Shown: piece by piece, positions 5,375 through 56,953 of the stretch
How positions within the stretch are numbered: the first letter of the stretch is position 1
Layout: every line of letters starts with the position of its first letter
Assembly: GCA_026066175.1 (NCBI GenBank)
Contig: GCA_026066175.1_4721.1
Source of the DNA: a phage
Reading direction: 5' to 3' (one strand)
Length of the DNA: 64,000 nucleotides
The notes under the pieces: generated by a model
The model's database searches: none
Told to the model about the DNA's origin: nothing
The model's input: only the letters and a program-made list of their open reading frames with translations
Program-made: the position numbers and the translations under genes

Positions 5375-5412
5375 ATCCTCCTTCCCCGGCCTGATGGCTA
5401 GGGAAGGAGGAT
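5375..5412. terminator. GC-rich hairpin, likely bidirectional intrinsic terminator (ATCCTCCTTCCC-loop-GGGAAGGAGGAT)
   Basis: Perfect 12-bp inverted repeat with 14-nt loop between convergent genes, flanked by A10 and T-rich tracts; same arms recur at 52920-52957 with the loop reverse-complemented. Confidence 0.6.
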
Positions 5413-5422
5413 TATGGTTTAT

Positions 5423-7080: not shown

Positions 7081-7095
7081 TAGGTAATATAGACC
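7081..7095 (-). promoter_or_regulatory. candidate phage early promoter motif (GGTCTATATTACCTA on the transcribed strand)
   Basis: Plus-strand TAGGTAATATAGACC; one of five copies of GTAATATAG(C/T)C, all placed so that TATATTAC reads toward a downstream minus-strand gene start. Confidence 0.45.
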
Positions 7096-13409: not shown

Positions 13410-13733
13410 TCTCTTGGGCGAATTTAGTTCTTATTCAGTATTAACATACCGTTACCGAAATAAGACTGAGATTAGATTGTTCAGATAAGGTCGTTAATCT
13501 TATCCCGGAGGTGATGATAGGCACATCACCTCCCGCTTACGTTCTCACGCAAGAGCAGACTATATCACATCTCGTTTCAAACGGTGCTTCTTCAGCACCT
13601 CAACGAGAGTTCACTTCTTCCCAGCGCATCCAGCGCCATTCTCTTATCCAAGGAGAATGCCTCACTCGAGGGGTACAGGGGGATGAATCCCTTAGTCGTT
13701 GAACCGTCACCCTAGAACGTTTCACAACGATCC

Positions 13734-14945
13734 TTAGGCGATTGGCTGCGGATTACCCTTGGCCTGCGGACCACGAACTTTTGTCGCGGTCAACTCTTCA
13801 TTTTTAAAGCCTGCTTCACGAGCAATACGTCTCGCTTCTCGCACGTCTAACGTTTCCGTTTCCGCTTTGGCTGAAGGCAGCATTGGGCGTCCCCGCAATT
13901 CAATGAATCTCGTCCATACGTCACCGTATAAACGGACCCGCTCTTTGTAAACAGAATAGTAGATATAACGTTTTCCGTCAGGAAATTTAGTCATTCCATC
14001 CGACTTTAAACGGTAATTGAGTAACGTAGTAGATATACCCATTTCTTCAGCGCAATCGACGGCCGAAAGGTACAACAGAGGTACATCATTTTCAGGAATG
14101 ACGACAATAGCACGTTTGTTGGTTGTCTTCTCCAACTCCAGGATACTATCTTCGACTTCTCGCCATGGCGTCTCATCAGTAACCCACTTAACTTGATAAC
14201 AACCATTAACGACAGGTTGGTTCTTGTCGTTAACGTACATCGACGCAGTGGATAACTTAACACCAATGTGATTCGCGAATTCAGTCAATGATTCGAAAAG
14301 ATGAATCTCTTTTGTTATCGTTGACCTTGCAATCACACCCTTACTTCCCGTATCCGTCAACGTTGCTAACTCGTATTTGGTGGGAATACGCCATGGTTCA
14401 TCGCCGTAATCTTTGCGGTACTGCTTACGTTCAGGAAACGCTCGCTGTTTGCCTCTATAGACACGATGATGAATGAAGTCGATATTCACACCAAGATCGC
14501 GTGCCGCTTCCGTCATGGATGGATATCTGGTTACAACACCGGTATCAACATCACGAACCTGAATAGGTTTACCGTAGGCAGCAATTGAACGTTTACGCAT
14601 GTTCATAATGCGAGCATGCTGATTGTTCTCTTTCTGCGTAACCCATTCAAGATTGTCATTCTCGGCGTTACCGTCGGGATCAAGGTAGTTATTAAGTCTG
14701 TTGCCGTCCTTGTGGTTCACATGGAGCAAATGCGCATCATCGATGTTACGGAACGTTAACATTAGAAGCCTGTGCATGGAACGGTAAACCAATGTTCCAT
14801 CGTGACCTCGAAACGAATAACGATAATACCCAGCAATGATGGTGGGCAAATATTCAAACTTCGATTCCTTGTTACGCAATGTTCCATCTATGGATATCTC
14901 CAGGAACGGGAATTCCGGTACGGTCTTAAATACCTTCTCACTCAT
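13734..14945 (-). CDS. HNH homing endonuclease with NUMOD-like DNA-binding repeats
   Basis: HVNHKDGNRLNN...NLEWVTQKENNQHA HNH motif near the N-terminus; three helix-turn-helix-like repeats (TEAARDLGV, TEFANHIGV, VDCAEEMGI). AAGAGGAA SD before the ATG and a TATATTAC-type motif ~45 nt upstream. Confidence 0.8.
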   Translation of the reverse strand: MSEKVFKTVPEFPFLEISIDGTLRNKESKFEYLPTIIAGYYRYSFRGHDGTLVYRSMHRLLMLTFRNIDDAHLLHVNHKDGNRLNNYLDPDGNAENDNLEWVTQKENNQHARIMNMRKRSIAAYGKPIQVRDVDTGVVTRYPSMTEAARDLGVNIDFIHHRVYRGKQRAFPERKQYRKDYGDEPWRIPTKYELATLTDTGSKGVIARSTITKEIHLFESLTEFANHIGVKLSTASMYVNDKNQPVVNGCYQVKWVTDETPWREVEDSILELEKTTNKRAIVVIPENDVPLLYLSAVDCAEEMGISTTLLNYRLKSDGMTKFPDGKRYIYYSVYKERVRLYGDVWTRFIELRGRPMLPSAKAETETLDVREARRIAREAGFKNEELTATKVRGPQAKGNPQPIA

Positions 14946-14985: not shown

Positions 14986-14997
14986 CGTAATATAGCC
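14986..14997 (-). promoter_or_regulatory. candidate early promoter motif upstream of the HNH gene (GGCTATATTACG on the transcribed strand)
   Basis: Plus-strand CGTAATATAGCC in the 75-nt gap between the beta-like ORF stop and the HNH start. Confidence 0.4.
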
Positions 14998-18000: not shown

Positions 18001-18230
18001 TTGGTTGCAAGATCATCCGCGAATGATATCCAAAGCTGGGCGCTTTCTTTGCTCAGCATGTATTCGTTTTCAGGAGGACCGATTAACGAAGGATCGGTTG
18101 CTGTATAATGATAAACCGCATAACGCGGCAGCTGCAAAAGCTGCACCAAACGCAATCTAGGTGATAATAACTCTTGATAACGTCGTACACCGAATTGTCT
18201 GTAGTAATCAAGGTATTTAAGTTTTGCCAT
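15021..18230 (-). CDS. multisubunit RNA polymerase beta-like subunit, N-terminal fragment (possible upstream exon; ORF tail may be intron-encoded)
   Basis: 1069 aa ORF starting 4 nt after the beta-prime fragment stop. C-terminal RSKTSLRRARDREYDKSDIGVVSEGTKDSGDVGISAYLAPNANIVSVYGETKPYDEKTDG resembles the RpoB segment ...[44 protein letters not shown]. Contains a strongly acidic insertion around 17030-17380. By-eye comparison only. Confidence 0.5.
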   Translation of the reverse strand: MAKLKYLDYYRQFGVRRYQELLSPRLRLVQLLQLPRYAVYHYTATDPSLIGPPENEYMLSKESAQLWISFADDLATKQGAPRRDQRFQLPRAKLDYRASHRRFRLVTDLSKVEKNINAQIVANYAHLNHMYIYRPTLTRWYDEWFNVRKTIWTQANEIAQQSDRQQFLLFRIPSTLPKISLMRTTQQAPTRNNLMNFATSEELSFFDFFRWLGVDRENSTMVSLDRASLDKLNVVFTDGVYFFTLNLGLMEEWRSGLAKEGEELDKTTLETFQRRWMMAVTRLWSQSANEEEQKQEEEQVLRQERDILADSPDAEYDERDVVLPNGEDLDTVLDPDELESELIGGSDEDDDAEAWNAVVERAFEDVREVPGVEVQPDFQPDEDQDITDDLFEVVNDDMPEEKVDVFDAATLPKTHGEYIQSLSDAVLVRASDLADAGQLSGVQYKAAMRNADAIHEIEAPDGSGLTLAEYVEVKPKAAKLAPEKVMPEADVIVDKSLCKSTLAVWDKHYVEHVMQKDIAAAVVAVQQAGYPVTGYKVEDVVDVMGDYQVITIKLAPVGGVPTTFPVMLPKVRKDGIYVVNGIKYRMRKQRVDKPIRKVSSSEVALSTAYGKVFVKRSERVVNNAGRWLTRQLTAMYYDKTSPLTTLKRGNVFDPSVKVPYYFAVLARNYTQIQFADWDIRLDIKTLPEHIGEDLFTEQLAGGFLTFAKNTNGEFLAVDGQNQLYVYEPNQTPTPVGTFPDFFGINAAKMPIEAADLEFMGVRIPVGVVLSYLGGLTPLLEHLKANYRTVPRGSRMGLASDEFAVSFDDESLIFSKDDRMTTLLLGGFNEYRNYIGYARGAFDNRDIYFNVVDGAGLKVRHLRELELMERLFVDPVSRTLLQNMGEPTDFAMLLLRAVELLLDDWAPNTNDVNYQRFKTYDKFAELVYKDLVGAIRQNENSSQGNRQKISISPVSVWNQILDDSASIVIDETNPMLDIKQGEEATMTGIGGRSKTSLRRARDREYDKSDIGVVSEGTKDSGDVGISAYLAPNANIVSVYGETKPYDEKTDGSSSIMSTSALAVPAADRDD

Positions 18231-18233
18231 GAG

Positions 18234-19913
18234 TTAGGCTCCACGAGGTCCCGTTAAGTTGCGTAATAGGAACGCAACCGTATCGTAACCAATATCAATG
18301 TTGAATTTATTTTTACCGCTTACCCAGAAAGCACGCTTCTTGTGCGAGTTGGTAATTTCGTCGATGGCTTCCATGGAATAAAGAACGTTAACAGAGACCG
18401 TATCACCGTCGAAATCGGCCCCGAGCCCGGCGAGAAACACTTGGCCGACTTGGGTCGTTTCTACGAACGATGCTTTTAATGACCAATCTGGGTATTCCCA
18501 CGCCATATAACGATAGCCTTCCATCGGTTGCCAGCTATCGTCGAGTTCTATTCTCGGTTTTGTATTAACCGTCGTTCTCACATAGCAAGTTAACGGTATA
18601 ACTGACTGCATCCCGGATACCGGATAACGTGTAACCATCGCACCGAGTTTATTCCAAAGATGGTAACCACTCAGATAAATCAACTCGCAATAGGTAATTG
18701 GGTGAACATTCGCACCAGGTTTGTTAAGCATCTCTGGTGGTAATTCACTCATACCACGGAACAGCCGGAATGAGTTGTTGTTCACATAGACCAAACAGAG
18801 ATAGCGACCATTCACCATGATAGGTTCGTTACGTACACCAGGATCGCTTAGGGTGTTTAATAAACGTTCGATGCCGTCCCAGGTTGTAAAGTCATCGATG
18901 GTATCTGGGTCTAGCGTGACACGTTCACGTTCCATCGTTTCGGTATCGATAAGCTCAGCTTCAGTAACATCGCGAACAAAGATTTCTTGTAATATCCCTG
19001 TACGTAACGCATGTTGCGTTATCGGAAGGGCTGCTTTGCTCATCTGGTATAGGCCGAGCTGTACAGACGTACACGATGTTTGGTTTGGAGAGCCAAGAAC
19101 TTCGGTCGTTGGAATAACTGCTGAAATAACGTTACGGGTTGAGTTCCAAACACGACGTGAACCGAACTTACCTTGGAAGATCCCTTTCTTACCCTGGAAC
19201 ATATCCAACAGCAATGCGTAGATATCATTGAAGGTTCTTTGCAGGCTCCAGCGCTGTCCGTCGTAGACAGGATCGTTGTAGTCCTTTAACCCATCGGGAA
19301 CGGTATTGGAGATAGCAAGGAAACGACGATAAAGCTCCGTGATTTCTTGTTCGCTTTCATACCCGCCTTCTTTTACTTCTATTTCACGAAGACCAGCAGG
19401 TAACACCAATAAATGACGGGTCATCGCTTTGAACATGTTTTCTTCGACAACTTTAATACGCAGTTCTCGTTGCGCTGAACCTGTTGAAACGAACATGATC
19501 TCCGCAACGTGTTGTGCGAAGAAACCGTAGCCGGTTTGTCCCGTTAACGCATCAGCGGCAACGAAATCACGTTGTTCTGGATCCCATCGCGCATAAGCTT
19601 TACCGGACATGATATCGCCATAAAGGTGTTTCAATCGAATAAGGCGATCGTAAATGACCGGATGCAAGATTTCCACTTTACACTCGATGACCGCAAAGCG
19701 GCGATCACGATCTTCGCTTCCCGCGCTCCCAAAAATGGTGTACGAATAAAAACCATCGTCATGGAAATTACCCGTGCTCGGGTCGCGGATACTCATGCTG
19801 GTAATCTTAGGAAGGAAACGCAACTGCTGCTTATCAAGATGCAGTATACTGATATTGAACGGCTCTCTGACTTTAGCCATGGATGCACTCCTTAAATAAG
19901 GCGGCGGTATCAT
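18234..19913 (-). CDS. multisubunit RNA polymerase beta-prime-like subunit, N-terminal fragment (virion RNAP-like)
   Basis: Contains GADFDGDTVSV (universal beta-prime catalytic NADFDGD motif), GIFQGKFGSRRVWNSTRNVI (cf. RpoC [20 protein letters not shown]) and LVLPAGLRE (cf. VLPPDLRP). The ORF ends ~50 aa after DFDGD, as expected for the split beta-prime of phiKZ-like phage RNAPs. Confidence 0.8.
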   Translation of the reverse strand: MIPPPYLRSASMAKVREPFNISILHLDKQQLRFLPKITSMSIRDPSTGNFHDDGFYSYTIFGSAGSEDRDRRFAVIECKVEILHPVIYDRLIRLKHLYGDIMSGKAYARWDPEQRDFVAADALTGQTGYGFFAQHVAEIMFVSTGSAQRELRIKVVEENMFKAMTRHLLVLPAGLREIEVKEGGYESEQEITELYRRFLAISNTVPDGLKDYNDPVYDGQRWSLQRTFNDIYALLLDMFQGKKGIFQGKFGSRRVWNSTRNVISAVIPTTEVLGSPNQTSCTSVQLGLYQMSKAALPITQHALRTGILQEIFVRDVTEAELIDTETMERERVTLDPDTIDDFTTWDGIERLLNTLSDPGVRNEPIMVNGRYLCLVYVNNNSFRLFRGMSELPPEMLNKPGANVHPITYCELIYLSGYHLWNKLGAMVTRYPVSGMQSVIPLTCYVRTTVNTKPRIELDDSWQPMEGYRYMAWEYPDWSLKASFVETTQVGQVFLAGLGADFDGDTVSVNVLYSMEAIDEITNSHKKRAFWVSGKNKFNIDIGYDTVAFLLRNLTGPRGA

Positions 19914-20053
19914 CTGAACACATGAGAGACGTAATGGGTGAAGCCATCACCCATCGCTTCCCTGCTTGATGCGAGGAAGGTATTAAATTACGTACCTGTT
20001 CGACAGCATCGAACAGGCGATGTATGAAGCTATGCTTCAATTTGGAGGTATAC

Positions 20054-23000
20054 ATGGTAGATAAAACCCGTGTTGAGGGTGATGATAATTGGGATAACTG
20101 GGATGATGACTTCTCCCTGGATCTCGATTTTAACGAACCCAAAGACGATCGTAAACCGATAACACGCTTTGCGGTAGGCGCGGTTAAAGGTGCTGCTGAG
20201 GATCTTACTTCCTACGAAAGAATGAAGGAGATCGCCAGAAACGCATTACCTAAGGGTTATAGCGACGGTATGGATCTTATCGATTCCGCCGTCGGATCCA
20301 CGAAGGAACTATACAATGAAGCCGTTCGTGACATTCTTCCGAAGGTACAAAGCTCAAAACGGTTAGCCGCACAACTGACGAAAAAATACCGTGCGAGCAT
20401 GCCCGATTTCTCGAAGAAAATCATCGAGCGTTGGGAGCAGGAAGCCAAGGAAGAAGACGAACGTAAGCAGGCGGAAGCCGATCTCAAACAACGCATGGCG
20501 AATGCAGGTGATGAAGAAATCGCTCGCAAGGTCGCTGAAGCGTTAGGCGAAGCGGCTAACCAGAACGCGGATCAGTTTGCGGAACAACAAGCAAAAGAAA
20601 GTATCCGTGACGATATTGCTGATAAACGTTATAATGTCACCAACAAACAGATGAGCGCGATGCAGGAAGGCATCGCCAAGATGGTTGGTTTCAATAACGA
20701 ATTCGCCGCACGCTATATGCGTAAAAGCCTGGAACTGAAATACCGTTCTTTGGCGATACAACGCGCGAGTTTCGATCAGCATAAAAAGTTAGCCGAAGTC
20801 TATATCGGTTTATTACAGAACATCCAAAAGAACACAGCTTTACCGGATGCGGCTAAAGCAAAAATGTCGGAAGAATTTCGTCGTACGGCGTACCAACGTT
20901 TCTTTGGTAACGCATTGAATGCGATGAGTTCTTTCGAGAACCGTTTCTTTGCTGATGTTAAGAAAAACCTTGCAACCAATGCACTGGGTGCGTTAAAAGG
21001 TGTTGCGTCTGGTGCGCACGACGCCCTCTCTGGTTTAAACGAAGCACGTGACTCGATGTCCATGATGGACGGCATGGGGTCAGAAGGCGATATTAAGGAA
21101 ATGCAAGGGAAGATGTTGGGTCAGTTAATCGGCTCAACCGTTGCACCATGGATGGCTAATAAAGGCATGACGGCATTGCGGGATTTAGCAAAACGCCATC
21201 CTAACGCTAAATTCGCCAACGCGTTAAAAGCGGTCGATCAAGGCGGTGAAGCTGCCGCTTATACAACGCGTAACGTCGGGAAACTGCTGCAAGAAGATAT
21301 TCGTAAAAACGAATTCAACCTCAGCGATCCTTTCTACAAACAGTTCCTCCGTGGAGCTGGACGTTGGGCCTTCAATCTGGACGGCGGTCGTAACTTCCGT
21401 GTAATGAACGACACCGCAGAGACATTAGCCGAACAAACGTCTTTCGATGGTTTAACCTATCGTAGCATCAACGAGGTCATTCCTGGATTTCTTGCTCGGA
21501 TACTGAAAAGCACTGAAGGTATCCGTACCGGTGAAAGCGATCCTGATTACGAGGTCTATGATGGCATCAGTGGGCAATTCGTTGCTCAGCGTACCCGCGA
21601 GCAAGGCGTAACCGACACGCTCTTTAACAAACGCTCGTTCGGTTATTACGCCGGTCGTTTTAATGAAGTTATCTCGGTTATCGATCCTGATAAACAGCTG
21701 TCAGAAAAGGCAAGGAAAGCCTTGGCTAAACAGCTGGCACGCGACAGCGATGCGAACATGGCTTTCGATCCTGCTCGATATACCGACGAAAGTAACTTTG
21801 ATCGCAGCATCGATAGAGACGCCATTAAAGAACTTTCTGCGTATTTCAAAGATCGTTACGGTATTCGTGATGATGTTGATGATGAAGGTAACCGTCAGCA
21901 GGTTATTGAAAACCGTGGGCAGTACTACACGGAACGTAACCGCGCTGACCTGCGGTACGGTAATCTGAAATCATTACAGCCGGATATCCAACGCAACCTT
22001 AACCTTCTGAAGCGTACCGGTGATATTCAATACCTGGAACGTATCGGGATCGTAACAAGAAACAGCGATGGCAGTTATTCGGTTAATCACGATCGTTACT
22101 TCTCTGAAATCGATCGATACATCGACCGACCGGAATATGCTGACCGCGGCGATGTTAACACGCGACTCAGTGCCCAACAGACCAGGGCGTTAGCGTTAGG
22201 CTATCGTGATGACGTTGCATCAAACACTGACGTACAAAATCGTGCGTTACCAAACCTTGATCGAACAACGGTCGGGACGGTAAACATCGATGAGAACATC
22301 GGGTACGAGAAATGGTGGAACGACGCGGGTGTTATCACCACATCGCTTGAAGACCAAAATCGCGCATGGCAAGAACTCTATCTTGAAGCGCTTCAGGAAG
22401 CTTCACATCAGCGTGAAACAATGCTGGAACTTCTGAAAGCGATCTCAGAAAAAGAATGGGGTGGTAACGGCATTGGACTCCAGGGCGAACCTGGCGGGGA
22501 AGAAAGTGATGATCGCTCTATGTTAAGTCGGATCTCCGACTTAACACTGGGTAAAGCCGGTAGCTATGCCTGGAAAGGTGCGAAAGGGGCTACCAAGTTC
22601 GGATGGAAATGGGGTCGAAAAGCGGCAACATGGGGCGCGAAACGTACATGGGGAAGCTTCGTAAACTCAGCGCGTCGAATTATCAACTTCAACCGTTTTG
22701 TGTTTGGCGCATTATCTAAGGTCGATCAAGTTCCGTTTGACATTTACGTTAAAGGTGAAGATCGTCCACGTATCTTAGCTGCGAAACTTCGTCAAGGTCT
22801 TTATTTCGATGAAGCCACCGGCAAAGCCGTCAAACGGATGAAGGATATTAAAGGTCCGTTAGTTGATGCTGATGGCAATATCGTCATCAGCGCTGAAGAT
22901 ATCGAGAAGGGCTTGATTACGCGTGCTGGACGCGCCTTCGAAAACTCCGGTTTGAAAGCATGGGCACGTGAAGGTATTAACGGTATCACCACGGTCTTAA

Positions 23001-26000
23001 GTTTACCAAGACTTTTAAAGCGTGGTGCTACGGAGCTGTACAAGCATTTCGATAAAACACCTGATGTATACGTGGCCGGTGAATCCACCCCACGTTTGCT
23101 TTCTCTGGTGATGGCAGCTGGCGGTTATTTCCGTAAGTCCGATGGGAAAGTCATCAAGCATCTGGAAGACATCGACGGTGATGTGGTTGACGCACAAGGA
23201 AACGTCATCCTGACCCACGCTGATATGCAGAAAGGGTTGGTCGATAAATACGGTAAGAAGATACGTCGCCTGAAAGAAAAGCTGATCAACTTCGGTGTGA
23301 AAGCTTTCACCTTACCGTTAACCTTATTGCGTAAGACAAAAGACATCCTGAAGAATCTCCCCACGAAAGCCATGAACGGGTTGCGTCGTATGGGCCTGAA
23401 CTTCCGTTTACCGGAAGAGGTGCTTATCGGTACAACCGCAGGCATGGTGGATCGTCTTGACGCTATTTATCAGCTTCTTGATAAACGCATGCCGGGTGGA
23501 GATAAGGATTATCGTGATTGGAACGGTGACGGTGTCCGTGAAGGATCGCTTGAAGATCTGAAACGTAAACGCGCTGAGAAAGAAGGAGAAAAAGGAGAAG
23601 GTACAGGTAAAGGATCCGGGAAAGGAGAAGAGAAGGAGAAGAAAAAAGGAATTCTTGGGAGCCTTTTCGACATGCTTGGTGACACCGCACTTGGTAAACG
23701 TTTAATGGCGAGTCCGCTTGGAAAGATTCTGGGTGGCCTTGGATCCATTCTCAGTGGTGGTGCATCATTAACGGGGTTACTCGGGAAAGGTTTGCTTAAA
23801 GGCTCAGGCGCACTCCTCAGAGGGGGTTTAAGTGCTGCGGGTTGGTTAGGGCGCGGTGCTCTGATGGCGGGCGGTGCTGCGCTTAATGCGGTAGGAGGAT
23901 TATCCGGGCTTGGTGCTGCGCTTATCTCCCCGGTTGGGTTAGCGATTGCCGGTGGGGCATTAGCGGTATACGTAGGCTGGAAGATCTATCAGCATTATGC
24001 TGAGAAACCTGACCCGATGCAGAAGCTTCGTCTTATTGCATACGGTGCAAAAGGGGATGACAAGGACTTCAACAAGAAGTTATTACAAACTGAAACCTAC
24101 CTTACCGACCATGTGGTCATGACGGGAGATACCATCGGATTCAATCCAAAAGCGGATTCTGAAAAGATTCTTGAAATCTGGGAACTGTCATTGGAAGATA
24201 CCGACCGGATGAATGAATGGAAGCGCTGGTATCTGCATCGCTTTATCCCCGTTTTCGCTCGTGCGTATAAGCTCTGGAAAGAGCATATGCCGGACGAGAA
24301 GAAGTACATGGAGATGGACGACTACCCCAACGGTGAGAACAAGGTCAAATGGTCGGAAGCCTTCATCTGGCCATCGGACAGTCCAGACAGCCCGTACTAT
24401 GTTGAAGCTAACCCGTTAGGTTCGGCTGGCGCAACGTTATACATCGCAGGGCAAGATGTTAAAAAGCTCATGGAGAGCCAACTGGAAGTCATCAGGAAAG
24501 AATATCAAAACCAGATCAAGAAATACACGCACGATGAAGCGATTAAAGACTGGTCGAAGATGTCTGACGCTCAGCGTAAATCTGTTGCACCTAACGCGTT
24601 ACGTGGTCAGAAAGCCTCTTTACGTTTCAACGACAAACGTTATAACAGTGCGGGTGTTAAAGGTCGTCAGAAACTGGACGCTACCGCGGTTGTTGAAAGC
24701 GTGGATCGTCGCGGTAAGAAATGGATGGCCGGTGGGTATATTGATGAACTTACCAGTTTGCGTATCCGTGCGTATGGGTTAGAGGTTCCGCTGTTAAGCC
24801 AAATCAAGGTATTGATGGAACTGGAAGACGCGGTTGAACCTGGCGTTGTTGCTGAAGGTAAAGGCGTCAAATACGGCGGTAATCTCGCGGAGCTGTATAA
24901 GAAGTTCGCGTCTAAGTTCGGTCGGGATGTCAACGGCAAACAAGACCAGAACATCTGGTTCGCCTGGATGAACAACCGTTTCTTGCCGGTCTTCTTAACG
25001 TACTATCAGCAAGTTGGCGAGATGGGCGGACAAGGGCTGTTATCAGATGTTGTACAGAATCTGAAAGACAGCCAGCGTTGGGAAATCGGTGAGGCGTTGG
25101 TTGCTGCGCAATACAAGGATGAGAAGGGTGCGCTACAGCCGGTATGGTCGTGGAACAGTTGTGGTTTCTCTGGCACCAAAGCAAACATGTCCAGCAGTTC
25201 AACCAAGAGCCAACTCGATCTGTTAAAAGAATACGCAGATAAAGAGAAGGTTCGTGAGAAGAACGCTGAAGCATCGCAGGAGGATGAAGATAAATTATCG
25301 AAAATCCAAGAGCAGTTGATGAAGCAAGCGGGATATGAGAAGAAGGACGGTGTTTGGCAGAAGAAATCACGTATCACGGGTGGGATGAGCAACGCGGAGG
25401 CGAACTACAATCCGAACCGTAACGAGGTTGGCAGAAGTAGCTTTACTGCTTCAGCAACCTCCAGCGCAGGTTTGGGTAGTGGTGGACCGGATATCACCGG
25501 GTTACCGAACATGGGACTGAAGAAACCCGCATCAGGTCCTGGTCCAGAAGCGGGTCGTCGTGCGGCAATTAAATCAGCGGTGAAGCACGGTATTACCGAT
25601 CCGATGGAAATGGCGATGTTCTTATCGAACCTCGAACATGAATCCGGTAACTACAGGTATGTCCGCGAACTTAACTACACAAAACCCGAAAGTCTGAAGA
25701 AAGCGTTCAACCGGAAATTCAGGGATGAACAAGACGCTGCGCAGACCATCAGCATGGGTCCAGAGGCTGTATTCGAACGTGTTTATGGCATGCGTAAGGA
25801 CCTGGGAAATACCCAGAAAGGTGACGGAGCGAAATATCTGGGGCGTAGTTATATCCAGGTTACAGGCAAAGCCAACTACGCACGATTGTCGAAGATCCTG
25901 AATAAAGATCTGGTTAGCGATCCATCGTATTTGGAAACCCCAGAAGGTGCAGCCGAAGGGAGTGTTGCATGGTGGCTTAACAGGGGTAACGTATTACGTG

Positions 26001-26725
26001 ATCCTGCAAAGCGTGGCGATGTGCGCCAGGTTCGTTATCTGGTTAACGGAGGATATAATGGGCTACGCGATGTTGAGCAACGTTCAGCGTATTGGATTCA
26101 AGCTGCTAAAAGCGGCACGTTGAAGAAAATGATGGATGAGGTTGCGGGTGCAACCTCGGACGATCAAGCTGAAGGTCCGTCTACCGCCAGCCAAGTGAAG
26201 AACGAGGAGGCGCAAGAAACCAACAGCACGCCAACGTCAAGCAACGATCCGCAAGCACCGACGGCGACCACGACGCCTGAAGTCAAACCATCAGCGGCCT
26301 CCGGCACTGCACCCGCACCCGGAACGGCAACACCGACACCAGGAAGTTTCGATACCGCAAAAGCTGCTGCTGGACAACCAGCATCAACACCAGCACCTAG
26401 CGATTTACCGTCAAACCCTGGTGCAAATCGAGGAATTTCAGTTCCAAATACACCCGCGCAGGTTGCGCAGTCCGCAACACAAACATCGGCAGCAAGTGAA
26501 AACTTCTACGGTAGTGCAGGTGAGATTCTTCGTCAGCAGTTGACCGTGCAACAAAACATCGAGAAGAACACCGGTAAGACCAACGAACTTATCTCAGAAT
26601 TGATCCAGGCTGTTAAAGGGTCAACGATCGGTAAAGGTTCGACAGGATCTTCTCAACAACAGACGATGTCGCTACCTAATCGTCCGCAAGGGATCTCTCC
26701 AACACGGACAAGGTACGCGCAGTAG
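20054..26725 (+). CDS. giant virion-associated protein (~2220 aa) with C-terminal GH19-type muralytic (lysozyme/chitinase-like) domain
   Basis: ORF track 20024..26725 trimmed to ATG with GGAGG SD. Region ~25560-26060 encodes AMFLSNLEHESGNYRY...YLGRSYIQVTGKANY...VAWWLNRGN, matching GH19 endolysin signatures. Also has tandem ~108 aa internal repeats (~22738-23390), a KE-rich tract and a ~110 aa Gly-rich segment (~23650-23990). Architecture is analogous to the phiKZ giant tail protein with a C-terminal lytic domain. Confidence 0.75.
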   Translation: MVDKTRVEGDDNWDNWDDDFSLDLDFNEPKDDRKPITRFAVGAVKGAAEDLTSYERMKEIARNALPKGYSDGMDLIDSAVGSTKELYNEAVRDILPKVQSSKRLAAQLTKKYRASMPDFSKKIIERWEQEAKEEDERKQAEADLKQRMANAGDEEIARKVAEALGEAANQNADQFAEQQAKESIRDDIADKRYNVTNKQMSAMQEGIAKMVGFNNEFAARYMRKSLELKYRSLAIQRASFDQHKKLAEVYIGLLQNIQKNTALPDAAKAKMSEEFRRTAYQRFFGNALNAMSSFENRFFADVKKNLATNALGALKGVASGAHDALSGLNEARDSMSMMDGMGSEGDIKEMQGKMLGQLIGSTVAPWMANKGMTALRDLAKRHPNAKFANALKAVDQGGEAAAYTTRNVGKLLQEDIRKNEFNLSDPFYKQFLRGAGRWAFNLDGGRNFRVMNDTAETLAEQTSFDGLTYRSINEVIPGFLARILKSTEGIRTGESDPDYEVYDGISGQFVAQRTREQGVTDTLFNKRSFGYYAGRFNEVISVIDPDKQLSEKARKALAKQLARDSDANMAFDPARYTDESNFDRSIDRDAIKELSAYFKDRYGIRDDVDDEGNRQQVIENRGQYYTERNRADLRYGNLKSLQPDIQRNLNLLKRTGDIQYLERIGIVTRNSDGSYSVNHDRYFSEIDRYIDRPEYADRGDVNTRLSAQQTRALALGYRDDVASNTDVQNRALPNLDRTTVGTVNIDENIGYEKWWNDAGVITTSLEDQNRAWQELYLEALQEASHQRETMLELLKAISEKEWGGNGIGLQGEPGGEESDDRSMLSRISDLTLGKAGSYAWKGAKGATKFGWKWGRKAATWGAKRTWGSFVNSARRIINFNRFVFGALSKVDQVPFDIYVKGEDRPRILAAKLRQGLYFDEATGKAVKRMKDIKGPLVDADGNIVISAEDIEKGLITRAGRAFENSGLKAWAREGINGITTVLSLPRLLKRGATELYKHFDKTPDVYVAGESTPRLLSLVMAAGGYFRKSDGKVIKHLEDIDGDVVDAQGNVILTHADMQKGLVDKYGKKIRRLKEKLINFGVKAFTLPLTLLRKTKDILKNLPTKAMNGLRRMGLNFRLPEEVLIGTTAGMVDRLDAIYQLLDKRMPGGDKDYRDWNGDGVREGSLEDLKRKRAEKEGEKGEGTGKGSGKGEEKEKKKGILGSLFDMLGDTALGKRLMASPLGKILGGLGSILSGGASLTGLLGKGLLKGSGALLRGGLSAAGWLGRGALMAGGAALNAVGGLSGLGAALISPVGLAIAGGALAVYVGWKIYQHYAEKPDPMQKLRLIAYGAKGDDKDFNKKLLQTETYLTDHVVMTGDTIGFNPKADSEKILEIWELSLEDTDRMNEWKRWYLHRFIPVFARAYKLWKEHMPDEKKYMEMDDYPNGENKVKWSEAFIWPSDSPDSPYYVEANPLGSAGATLYIAGQDVKKLMESQLEVIRKEYQNQIKKYTHDEAIKDWSKMSDAQRKSVAPNALRGQKASLRFNDKRYNSAGVKGRQKLDATAVVESVDRRGKKWMAGGYIDELTSLRIRAYGLEVPLLSQIKVLMELEDAVEPGVVAEGKGVKYGGNLAELYKKFASKFGRDVNGKQDQNIWFAWMNNRFLPVFLTYYQQVGEMGGQGLLSDVVQNLKDSQRWEIGEALVAAQYKDEKGALQPVWSWNSCGFSGTKANMSSSSTKSQLDLLKEYADKEKVREKNAEASQEDEDKLSKIQEQLMKQAGYEKKDGVWQKKSRITGGMSNAEANYNPNRNEVGRSSFTASATSSAGLGSGGPDITGLPNMGLKKPASGPGPEAGRRAAIKSAVKHGITDPMEMAMFLSNLEHESGNYRYVRELNYTKPESLKKAFNRKFRDEQDAAQTISMGPEAVFERVYGMRKDLGNTQKGDGAKYLGRSYIQVTGKANYARLSKILNKDLVSDPSYLETPEGAAEGSVAWWLNRGNVLRDPAKRGDVRQVRYLVNGGYNGLRDVEQRSAYWIQAAKSGTLKKMMDEVAGATSDDQAEGPSTASQVKNEEAQETNSTPTSSNDPQAPTATTTPEVKPSAASGTAPAPGTATPTPGSFDTAKAAAGQPASTPAPSDLPSNPGANRGISVPNTPAQVAQSATQTSAASENFYGSAGEILRQQLTVQQNIEKNTGKTNELISELIQAVKGSTIGKGSTGSSQQQTMSLPNRPQGISPTRTRYAQ

Positions 26726-28931: not shown

Positions 28932-28967
28932 AGCCCTCCTCCTTCCCTTCCGGGTTGGAGGAGGGCT
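28932..28967. terminator. GC-rich hairpin (AGCCCTCCTCC-TTCCCTTCCGGGTT-GGAGGAGGGCT), bidirectional terminator candidate
   Basis: 11-bp inverted repeat between convergent genes 26776..28917 (+) and 28972..30039 (-). Confidence 0.6.
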
Positions 28968-28971
28968 TATG

Positions 28972-30039: not shown

Positions 30040-30121
30040 CACGTCCTCCTGAAAAAGAAAAAAGAAATACGGCATAAAGCCTACCCACACAATGGTGGGT
30101 AGGCTAAGATCAACATCGATG

Positions 30122-37144: not shown

Positions 37145-37180
37145 CCCACCCTACTACCCCATTGAGGGCGGTAGGGTGGG
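37145..37180. terminator. hairpin CCCACCCTAC-loop-GTAGGGTGGG, bidirectional terminator candidate
   Basis: Perfect 10-bp stem between convergent genes, followed by a T-rich tract. Confidence 0.55.
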
Positions 37181-37187
37181 ATAAGGT

Positions 37188-41775: not shown

Positions 41776-41781
41776 CATATT

Positions 41782-41813
41782 CCCTCCTCCTTCCCTTACG
41801 GGTTGGAGGAGGG
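41782..41813. terminator. GC-rich hairpin (CCCTCCTCC-TTCCCTTACGGGTT-GGAGGAGGG) followed by A16
   Basis: Perfect 9-bp arms; the inner loop can itself form CCC/GGG around a UUAC (GUAA on the opposite strand) tetraloop; between convergent genes. Confidence 0.6.
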
Positions 41814-41888
41814 CTATGCCGTAAAGCAAAAAAAAAAAAAAAATGATAGTCACGAGCCCTCCAATGAAGGAGAGCCGTGACCGTCAGT

Positions 41889-45292: not shown

Positions 45293-45320
45293 AAGCCTGT
45301 CCTTCGGGGCAGGCTTTTAT
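45293..45320 (+). terminator. intrinsic terminator (AAGCCTGTCC-TTCG-GGGCAGGCTT + TTTT)
   Basis: Classic stem-loop plus T-tract 5 nt after the stop of 44466..45287. Confidence 0.65.
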
Positions 45321-45395
45321 GCCGTTAAATAACTGGAATAAGAATTAACAAAATAGGAAAATGGTGTGAATATAACACAAAGGAGGGAGATGATT

Positions 45396-45930: not shown

Positions 45931-45934
45931 AAAC

Positions 45935-45966
45935 CATCCTCCCAACCCGTAAGGGAAGGGAGGATG
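45935..45966. terminator. GC-rich hairpin (CATCCTCCC-AACCCGTAAGGGAA-GGGAGGATG)
   Basis: 9-bp arms; the loop is the reverse complement of the loop at 41791-41804; between convergent genes. Confidence 0.55.
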
Positions 45967-45983
45967 AAATATGCCGTTAAACG

Positions 45984-52919: not shown

Positions 52920-52957
52920 ATCCTCCTTCCCTAGCCATCAGGCCGGGGAAGGAGGAT
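52920..52957. terminator. GC-rich hairpin, same arms as 5375-5412 with reverse-complemented loop
   Basis: ATCCTCCTTCCC-TAGCCATCAGGCCG-GGGAAGGAGGAT preceded by A12 and followed by TTATGGTTTATTTA, the same flank as the 5375 copy. Confidence 0.6.
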
Positions 52958-52970
52958 TATGGTTTATTTA

Positions 52971-56873: not shown

Positions 56874-56953
56874 TTTAGATCTCTCTTTGTTATTGGTAAA
56901 ATAAATAACGGCATAAAGGGGACATAACTGCCCCCGTGTTAAATATCAACTGT

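Follow-up and report, generated by a model that had tools for sequence, protein, structure and literature searches.

The DNA analysed here, a 64-kb stretch to which we refer as the window, derives from a Goslar-like chimallivirus, a nucleus-forming jumbo phage, and shares 85.6% nucleotide identity with Escherichia phage vB_EcoM_Goslar over positions 18200-21500; apart from Goslar, no member of the phage collection matched this region at that level. Two genes diverge at the locus under study. The minus strand encodes the N-terminal, beta-prime-like subunit of the virion RNA polymerase (vRNAP; 18234-19880, 548 aa), a homologue of phiKZ gp180 (PHIKZ180) and Goslar gp205. Its product belongs to phrog_2986 ('RNA polymerase beta subunit', E 1e-179), is 91% identical to Goslar gp205 and approximately 38% identical to PHIKZ180 in tblastn searches, and yields weak phmmer matches to the RNA polymerase beta-prime chains 7s01_d and 8qma_T. 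The phage encodes subunits of multisubunit RNA polymerases, and Goslar gp205 is one of five vRNAP subunits detected in virions by mass spectrometry; the vRNAP genes of phiKZ are middle genes (PMC4666361). The plus strand carries the gene of a giant virion protein (20054-26725, 2223 aa) with an endolysin-like domain at aa 1838-2046, homologous to phiKZ gp181 and Goslar gp204. The giant protein matches the tail-fibre PHROG phrog_3201 as well as phrog_181, and its N-terminus is similar to PHIKZ181 (BLASTP, E 3e-33), which is annotated as a tail-associated endolysin. The phrog_2986 assignment and the homology to gp205 and PHIKZ181 thus confirm the description in the initial annotation of a divergent spacer between a vRNAP beta-prime-like gene and the gene of a giant virion protein.

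The beta-prime-like gene contains a group I intron near codon 490 in Goslar and several relatives (L001 6277-6705, L003 4482-4914, L011 2982-3366, L013 2982-3450), in Goslar with the HNH-endonuclease ORF gp206 alongside; the copy in the window (18234-19880) is intron-less and contiguous. Elsewhere in the window a group I intron is present at 13536-13959 on the minus strand (Rfam RF00028, 51.4 bits), and both the 'divergent spacer' at 13410-13510 and the small plus-strand ORF at 13511-13702, which appear in a naive ORF map, are probably intron sequence within a minus-strand gene.

The intergenic spacer and its stem-loops

The spacer between the two genes measures 173 nt (19881-20053) and not 140 nt as assumed earlier, a figure that rested on ATG 19913 of the longest ORF, because the polymerase gene starts at ATG 19880, behind AAGGAG, as annotated in Goslar. 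This Shine-Dalgarno sequence, as read from the DNA, occupies positions 19888-19893 on the minus strand, 7 nt before the start codon. Its counterpart for the giant gene, GGAGG, is located at 20044-20048 on the plus strand, 5 nt before ATG 20054, and the string GGAGGTATACATGGTAGAT that extends from the Shine-Dalgarno sequence to the ATG is unchanged in all relatives, also across a 63-nt indel. An N-terminal extension or a small ORF beginning at the in-frame ATG 20024 (GTG in Goslar) was considered and rejected, as this codon lacks a Shine-Dalgarno sequence, the variation there is non-synonymous, and the Shine-Dalgarno sequence and ATG at 20044-56 are invariant. The annotated GTG start of Goslar gp204 (L001 9877; NC_048170 215417) lies inside a hairpin, the one termed H4 below, and has no ribosome-binding site; the true start is likely the invariant GGAGGTATACATG situated 93 nt downstream (215510), and the protein as annotated probably carries 31 extra residues.

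Four stem-loops (H1 to H4) are found in the spacer. Two perfect inverted repeats had been recognised in the initial annotation, which missed H2 and H4; both repeats exist, the first where it had been placed, the second at 19995-20017, about 11 nt to the left of the 20006-20028 assigned to it. H1 (19934-19954) consists of a perfect 8-bp stem, ATGGGTGA/TCACCCAT, and the 5-nt loop AGCCA. H2 (19957-19979) has an imperfect stem of nine pairs, CTTCCCTGC/GCGAGGAAG, including one mismatch and one wobble, with the loop TTGAT, and is separated by an AT-rich linker, GTATTAAATTACGTA (19980-19994), from H3 (19995-20017), whose perfect 9-bp stem CCTGTTCGA/TCGAACAGG encloses the loop CAGCA. H4 (20025-20039), a 6-bp stem TGAAGC/GCTTCA with the loop TAT, ends 4 nt before the Shine-Dalgarno sequence of the giant gene. 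Next to H1 lies an invariant, unstructured block of 33 nt, GCGGCGGTATCATCTGAACACATGAGAGACGTA (19901-19933), the putative site of the core promoter of one gene or of both. Furthermore, ATTACGT (19987-93) can pair with ACGTAAT (19929-35), and this inverted repeat may form a closing stem around H1 and H2; the stem is included in the RNAalifold consensus, and covariation is absent from it. Interpretation of the ATTACGT boxes as divergent elements resembling the phiKZ middle motif (AAanTTACc) was discarded, as Goslar intergenic DNA contains 5 such boxes versus 4.9 expected.

As estimated from dinucleotide shuffles of the window, 64 kb would by chance contain 6.7 perfect hairpins with stems of 8 bp or more, and the Poisson probability of finding at least two of them within 173 nt is 1.6e-4. 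The folding z-score of the spacer ranges from -3.3 to -4.1 on either strand; of the nine divergent spacers in the ORF-based gene map of the window, no other is strongly structured (z of the others, +1.9 to -2.9). Searches of the spacer against Rfam 15 gave no family match, the best scores being 16 bits or lower compared with gathering thresholds of 38-60, and neither a tRNA nor a tmRNA was found in it.

Conservation and distribution of the hairpin array

Scans of viral and metagenome contigs recovered nine further Goslar-like sequences and yielded nine distinct spacer haplotypes. The spacer core is identical to that of Goslar at 120 of 140 positions (85.7%), compared with 57-61% identity at the third codon positions of both flanking genes (binomial p 3e-11). 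Only one column among 33 (19923, T/C) varies over the nine haplotypes in the block 19901-33, for which neutral evolution predicts approximately 40% divergence; the consensus fold shows no stable pairing in this block. Within the array, 3 of 46 columns vary in the stems of H1, H2 and H4, versus 13 of 42 in loops and linkers (Fisher p 0.005), and on the plus strand 97.9% of the cells of the four helices are paired across the nine haplotypes, a value that falls to 35-47% if the partners are slid against each other. All 16 columns of the H1 stem are invariant, for which the probability at the neutral rate is about 3e-4, and its loop varies at three of five positions, reading TGGCG in the Goslar type. 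Paired cells amount to 96% in H2, which has a constant U.G pair on the plus strand, and to 100% in H4, whose closing pair is U.G in seven of the nine haplotypes on that strand. The fastest-evolving segment is H3, with variation in eight of 18 stem columns and in all loop columns (loop variants CAGCA, TGGCC, AAA and TTT) and with 96% of its cells paired; three of its pairs carry compensatory double changes, and the observed number of doubly changed cells was reached in none of 500 shuffles. For H3 at least, the haplotypes indicate that pairing rather than sequence is kept, by means of compensatory change. In the Goslar type, 63 additional nucleotides between H4 and the ribosome-binding site form two more stem-loops (H5 and H6), giving six in total versus four here, which shows that whole hairpin modules are gained or lost. 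Judged by these comparisons the array is functional and under purifying selection, and no decaying relic, because the spacer exceeds third codon positions in identity, the stems vary less than the loops, and the changes in H3 are compensated. It is specific to Goslar-like phages.

The initial annotation had proposed the palindromes as sites for a late regulator or the non-virion RNA polymerase (nvRNAP) common to late genes, and their recurrence upstream of other structural genes as one way to recognise this. The proposal is not supported. When up to three mismatches were allowed, H1, H2 and H3 were found at this locus only, both in the 64-kb window and in the complete 237-kb Goslar genome, so that none of them lies upstream of another structural gene; a covariance model of H1-H4 matched solely its own locus in searches covering the window, Goslar and the phiKZ, RAY and SPN3US loci, and the remaining intergenic regions show no enrichment of any 8-mer from the spacer. 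As the hairpins are single-copy they do not represent an operator common to late genes, and a global late regulator acting through H1, H2 or H3 is excluded. The pattern to be expected of an operator, fixed half-sites around a free centre, is displayed by H1 and not by H3, and a change of half-sites with pairing kept, as seen among the H3 haplotypes, is the signature of a structure and not of a sequence-specific operator. A mobile or host-derived repeat was likewise rejected, as blastn searches with the spacer returned Goslar as the sole match among the phages of the collection and no match among 5,426 E. coli genomes.

The divergent gp180/gp181 pair is conserved, and the spacers of phiKZ (75 nt), RAY (42 nt) and SPN3US (29 nt) are short and unstructured. 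We surveyed 80 chimallivirus loci, 55 of which were evaluable, and measured the spacer between the longest ORFs; so defined, it usually comprises 20-80 nt. When hairpin stability was ranked in 44-nt windows over each 4.6-kb locus, the spacer contained the top-ranking window, or one within the top 0.3%, at nine of the 55 loci, and these represent at least six lineages. Besides the Goslar-like phages these are L050 (1330-1501), L054 (1375-1483), L062 (1306-1486), L075 (1310-1411) together with L077 (1311-1435), L078 (1398-1483) and L084 (1383-1432), and they share no sequence similarity. Hairpins at the gp180/gp181 junction are hence sporadic but recurrent. Their predicted stabilities in the seven loci named range from -17 to -29 kcal/mol in 44 nt, and the hairpin of L075/L077 is flanked by tails of the terminator type on both strands.

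Promoter, terminator and strand signals

The early-type motif TATATTAC occurs at five sites in the window and at none within 19881-20053; its absence, on which the initial annotation was correct, fits a non-early class of the flanking genes. The AT-rich early (vRNAP) promoter motif, in this phage GGCTATATTAC, was not found in the spacer, nor were sigma-70 promoters or canonical T-tract terminators. The sites (G)GCTATATTAC at 14987, 44347 and 59612 and (C)TATATTAC at 7084, all on the minus strand, are intergenic and located upstream of minus-strand genes; they probably constitute this phage's early (vRNAP) promoter motif, and a single copy is situated directly downstream of the vRNAP subunit genes, before the gene at 13734-14945.

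The late element of phiKZ is TATG, with transcription starting at the G (PMC7598289, PMC12809450), and promoters of the nvRNAP are minimal, consisting of TATG (PMC7598289). This core is present on the plus strand of the spacer at 20023-20026, with a second copy at 20031-34, in the window clade only; the Goslar type shows TGTG and TACG at the two positions and lacks TATG on the plus strand within some 350 nt. If transcription began at G20026, H4 would stand at the extreme 5' end of the mRNA. TATG is thus not conserved in the spacer among close relatives, and no other recognisable promoter motif is conserved there either. Two candidate promoter features were discarded in this context. TATG followed by a 5'-terminal hairpin is no general late-promoter layout, as the sequence that follows intergenic TATG sites is no more structured than the background, in the window as in Goslar; and TCTGAACA, of which the window has three intergenic, correctly oriented copies, occurs eight times in Goslar versus approximately seven expected, mostly in coding sequence, and one of the window copies lies in a group I intron.

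Terminators of this phage consist of a GC-rich hairpin followed by TTATGCCGT, a combination counted nine times in the window and 21 times in Goslar, and in the window they are found at 5376-5419, 28943-28971, 30069-30105, 37145-37187, 41776-41822, 45293-45325, 45931-45977, 52921-52964 and 56908-56935. The phiKZ terminator motif ...TTATKYYGT is the same module (PMC10914365). TATGCCGT is found nine times in the window versus about two expected, and 21 times in Goslar versus about seven expected. The terminator tail TTATGCCGT contains the phiKZ late-promoter core TATG. Without a preceding hairpin, TATGCCGT is present at 2240-2247 of the window and at 197095 of Goslar, in both cases on the minus strand and 22 nt upstream of a Shine-Dalgarno sequence and ATG, between divergent genes (upstream of the Goslar gp219 homologue and opposite the tail sheath gene gp218). 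Because such a hairpin-less copy lies between divergent genes, where no terminator is needed, TATGCCGT may double as a late promoter and initial transcribed sequence. One occurrence, at 41776-41888, comprises a hairpin, TATGCCGT and a run of 16-17 A and corresponds to both ends of the linear Goslar record (1-60 and 237250-237307), where the sequence is repeated; the window thus spans the point at which the Goslar record was opened.

No spacer hairpin is located 3' of a same-strand stop codon, both neighbouring genes pointing away from it. The tails of the hairpins in the window are CGCTTCC for H1, GTATTAAAT for H2, CGATGTATG for H3 and ATTTGGAGG for H4, and none of them equals TTAT(G)CCGT. H2 comes closest, with a stem of the CCTTCC/GGAAGG type similar to those of the phage terminators and, in the Goslar type, the tail TTATTAGGT, which through its TTAT is a partial match only. 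With the tail GTATTAAAT found here, H2 is terminator-like and not a member of the class formed by hairpin and TTATGCCGT.

Wobble pairs and folding energies bear on the question of which strand is transcribed. G.U-compatible on the plus strand are pair 7 of H2 (the constant U.G), the closing pair of H4, three H3 cells in two haplotypes and one cell in H6; on the minus strand this applies to the H2 mismatch of the window type, to the basal pair of H3 and to a single variant of H3. The resulting tally, approximately five to six changes fitting the plus strand versus two to three fitting the minus strand, is not decisive, and we do not base a choice of strand on it. H2 and H4 of the Goslar type are predicted to be more stable on the plus strand (-15.1 versus -9.4 kcal/mol and -4.4 versus -2.6 kcal/mol, respectively), and the four hairpins of the window clade are equally stable on both strands. 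Sequence comparison and predicted stability together weakly favour the plus strand as the transcribed one. The loops also differ in orientation between lineages: at 19942-19946 the H1 loop reads AGCCA or TGGCG (the exact reverse complement would be TGGCT), and at 20004-20008 the H3 loop reads AAA or TTT. These differences suggest flips of the palindromes via template switching or recombination, a mutational signature at the level of DNA. They imply that sequence and orientation of the loops matter little, and also that the compensatory changes could in part stem from template switching instead of selection on RNA.

A proposed structured leader, competing explanations and known systems

The explanation we prefer, tentatively and with a confidence that stays somewhat short of even, is that the spacer is a selectively maintained stem-loop array which acts in cis at the RNA level, as a structured leader at the 5' end of the giant-gene mRNA. 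One or more promoters would lie in the invariant unstructured block (19901-19933), and RNA made from there toward the giant gene would begin with a leader of some 120 nt (some 190 nt in Goslar) within which H1-H4 fold. The stem-loops could then give shape and protection to the 5' terminus of this very long mRNA (6.7 kb, or approximately 9 kb with the next gene). H4 would leave the Shine-Dalgarno sequence, 4 nt further on, accessible; H2, which resembles the hairpin and TTAT terminators of the phage, might attenuate transcription and release a short H1-H2 RNA, a behaviour recorded for several 5' UTRs of phiKZ. The pattern of variation described above, with nearly complete pairing, compensated pairs in H3 and stems more conserved than loops, is that of stem-loops kept by selection on pairing. 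In addition, all hairpins are found on the giant-gene side of the invariant block, and the 63-nt indel adjoins the ribosome-binding site of the giant gene. Transcription of the hairpins, its strand and starting point, and the role of the stems are inferences. Several observations speak against a leader: the complete invariance of the H1 stem equally fits a sequence-specific site, the H2 tail GTATTAAAT is unlike the terminator tail TTATGCCGT, neither TATG nor another recognisable promoter motif is conserved in the spacer, template switching could account for part of the compensatory changes, and the strand evidence is mixed, with changes compatible with the minus strand and equal stability of the window-clade hairpins on both strands.

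The near-perfect palindromes with similar folding energies on both strands in the window clade, together with the tolerated loop inversions, would also suit bidirectional insulators, that is, terminator-like or pausing stem-loops that on either strand keep antisense or read-through transcription, once it has crossed one gene, from a mistimed, sense-oriented run into the next, with the promoters located outside or between the hairpins. Spurious transcription is plausible given how minimal the nvRNAP promoters are (PMC7598289); Goslar-type H2 is followed by TTAT as in the phage terminators, and in at least six chimallivirus lineages a hairpin that is the most stable of its locus or in the top 0.3% is found in this very spacer, in L075/L077 with tails on both strands. 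However, no same-strand gene ends in the spacer, the stems are shorter and less GC-rich than those of real phage terminators, and the TTATGCCGT tail is absent in the window. Moreover, H4 here and H5 and H6 in Goslar are too near the ribosome-binding site for any promoter downstream of them and must lie in the leader or inside the promoter itself, and neither the other eight divergent spacers of the window gene map nor most chimallivirus lineages have such an array. We regard insulation as unlikely, though worth keeping in mind. Improbable, in our view, is a locus-specific operator, in which one or more palindromes, chiefly H1, would be bound as double-stranded DNA by a dimeric phage protein whose control is confined to these two divergent promoters. 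H1 does look the part, since its arms are invariant in nine haplotypes with a varying centre, this conservation is hardly expected at the neutral rate, and H1 abuts the invariant candidate promoter block. Against this stand the single occurrence of H1, H2 and H3 in both the window and the Goslar genome, the compensatory substitutions in the half-sites of H3, the tolerance of G.U-type changes in the stems, and the fact that no candidate DNA-binding regulator was identified.

The consensus fold itself, in which ACGTAAT/ATTACGT encloses H1 and H2 as a compact unit and a U-rich or TTAT tail comes next, could be read as a stand-alone small non-coding RNA gene, and intergenic small RNAs have been reported for phiKZ and PhiPA3; alternatively the loop inversions, which show hairpin activity at the DNA level, could point to an element that works as DNA, for instance an origin of replication or a cruciform assisting the melting of a promoter. 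We consider it very improbable that the array is one of these instead of a leader. The small RNA would have neither an Rfam family match nor a recognisable promoter or canonical terminator, and its closing stem is without covariation. A replication origin was rejected because there are no AT-rich unwinding elements or iterons and the GC skew merely follows the coding strand. As to promoter melting, the other divergent spacers of the window have no such hairpins, which are thus not a general promoter feature, and structure is not tied to intergenic TATG sites. A bolder extension would take the gp180/gp181 junction as a hotspot of repeated hairpin evolution and the hairpins as a dedicated control device for middle genes including those of the vRNAP subunits, either in the form of an attenuator that releases a small H1-H2 RNA or as DNA or RNA hairpins that help the nvRNAP, or a modified form of it, to choose or insulate promoters. 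We give this little credence at present; if true, it would open a concrete way into the question of how a 4-nt consensus suffices for specificity at middle and late promoters.

The control of middle and late transcription in nucleus-forming jumbo phages is unsettled, with TATG as the sole defined late element and no working model for middle promoters. The genes of the vRNAP and the giant tail lysin need to be expressed at the correct time, and a conserved, single-copy, structured spacer between them is a tractable locus, the more so as Goslar is now used as a model phage of E. coli. Should the array merely be a stabilising leader, this would be ordinary biology, yet it would correct the annotated start of Goslar gp204 and define the untranslated leader to be considered in the design of knock-down guides.

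Several known systems resemble the array in part. Phage N4 uses hairpin promoters for its virion RNA polymerase, a single-subunit enzyme; they have stems of 5-7 bp and 3-nt loops and recur at several early promoters. The similarity lies in short hairpins in a control region of a phage with its own virion RNA polymerase. Here, however, stems comprise 6-9 bp and loops 3-5 nt (8-9 bp and 5 nt in H1-H3), none of the hairpins recurs, neither flanking gene is early, and the phage's polymerases are multisubunit enzymes, so H1-H3 are not hairpin promoters of the N4 type. Small hairpin-associated loop inversions are well known from plastid intergenic regions, and the loops of H1 (AGCCA/TGGCG) and H3 (AAA/TTT) appear to have flipped in the same manner, a mutational signature that is silent on function.

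The array has in common with the phiKZ-type terminators (GC-rich hairpin and TTATKYYGT), a module that the phage uses, the CCTTCC/GGAAGG-like stem of H2 and its TTAT tail in the Goslar type; it differs in that H1-H4 lie between divergent genes, have weaker stems and, in the window, a tail that is not TTATGCCGT. For phiKZ, structured 5'-UTR elements with premature termination have been described, with 17 candidates, for example P112/T102, a 71-nt RNA upstream of PHIKZ221 (Putzeys et al. 2024, PMC10914365). Both cases concern chimalliviruses and share stem-loops between a promoter, here a candidate, and the ribosome-binding site, as well as a terminator-like hairpin in the leader. There is no sequence similarity between them, and the phiKZ elements are defined by mapped 5' and 3' ends whereas ours are read from sequence alone; moreover, the orthologous gp180/gp181 spacer of phiKZ (75 nt) is without hairpins, unlike the spacer described here. 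The leaders of E. coli ompA and T4 gene 32 have 5'-terminal stem-loops that stabilise the mRNA and in which structure rather than sequence is conserved. As in these leaders, the hairpins predicted here would be located at or near the 5' end of a long mRNA and close to the ribosome-binding site; with four to six hairpins the array exceeds theirs, and it is a candidate leader known from its sequence. As a cis element the array has not been described before, although its general kind is familiar.
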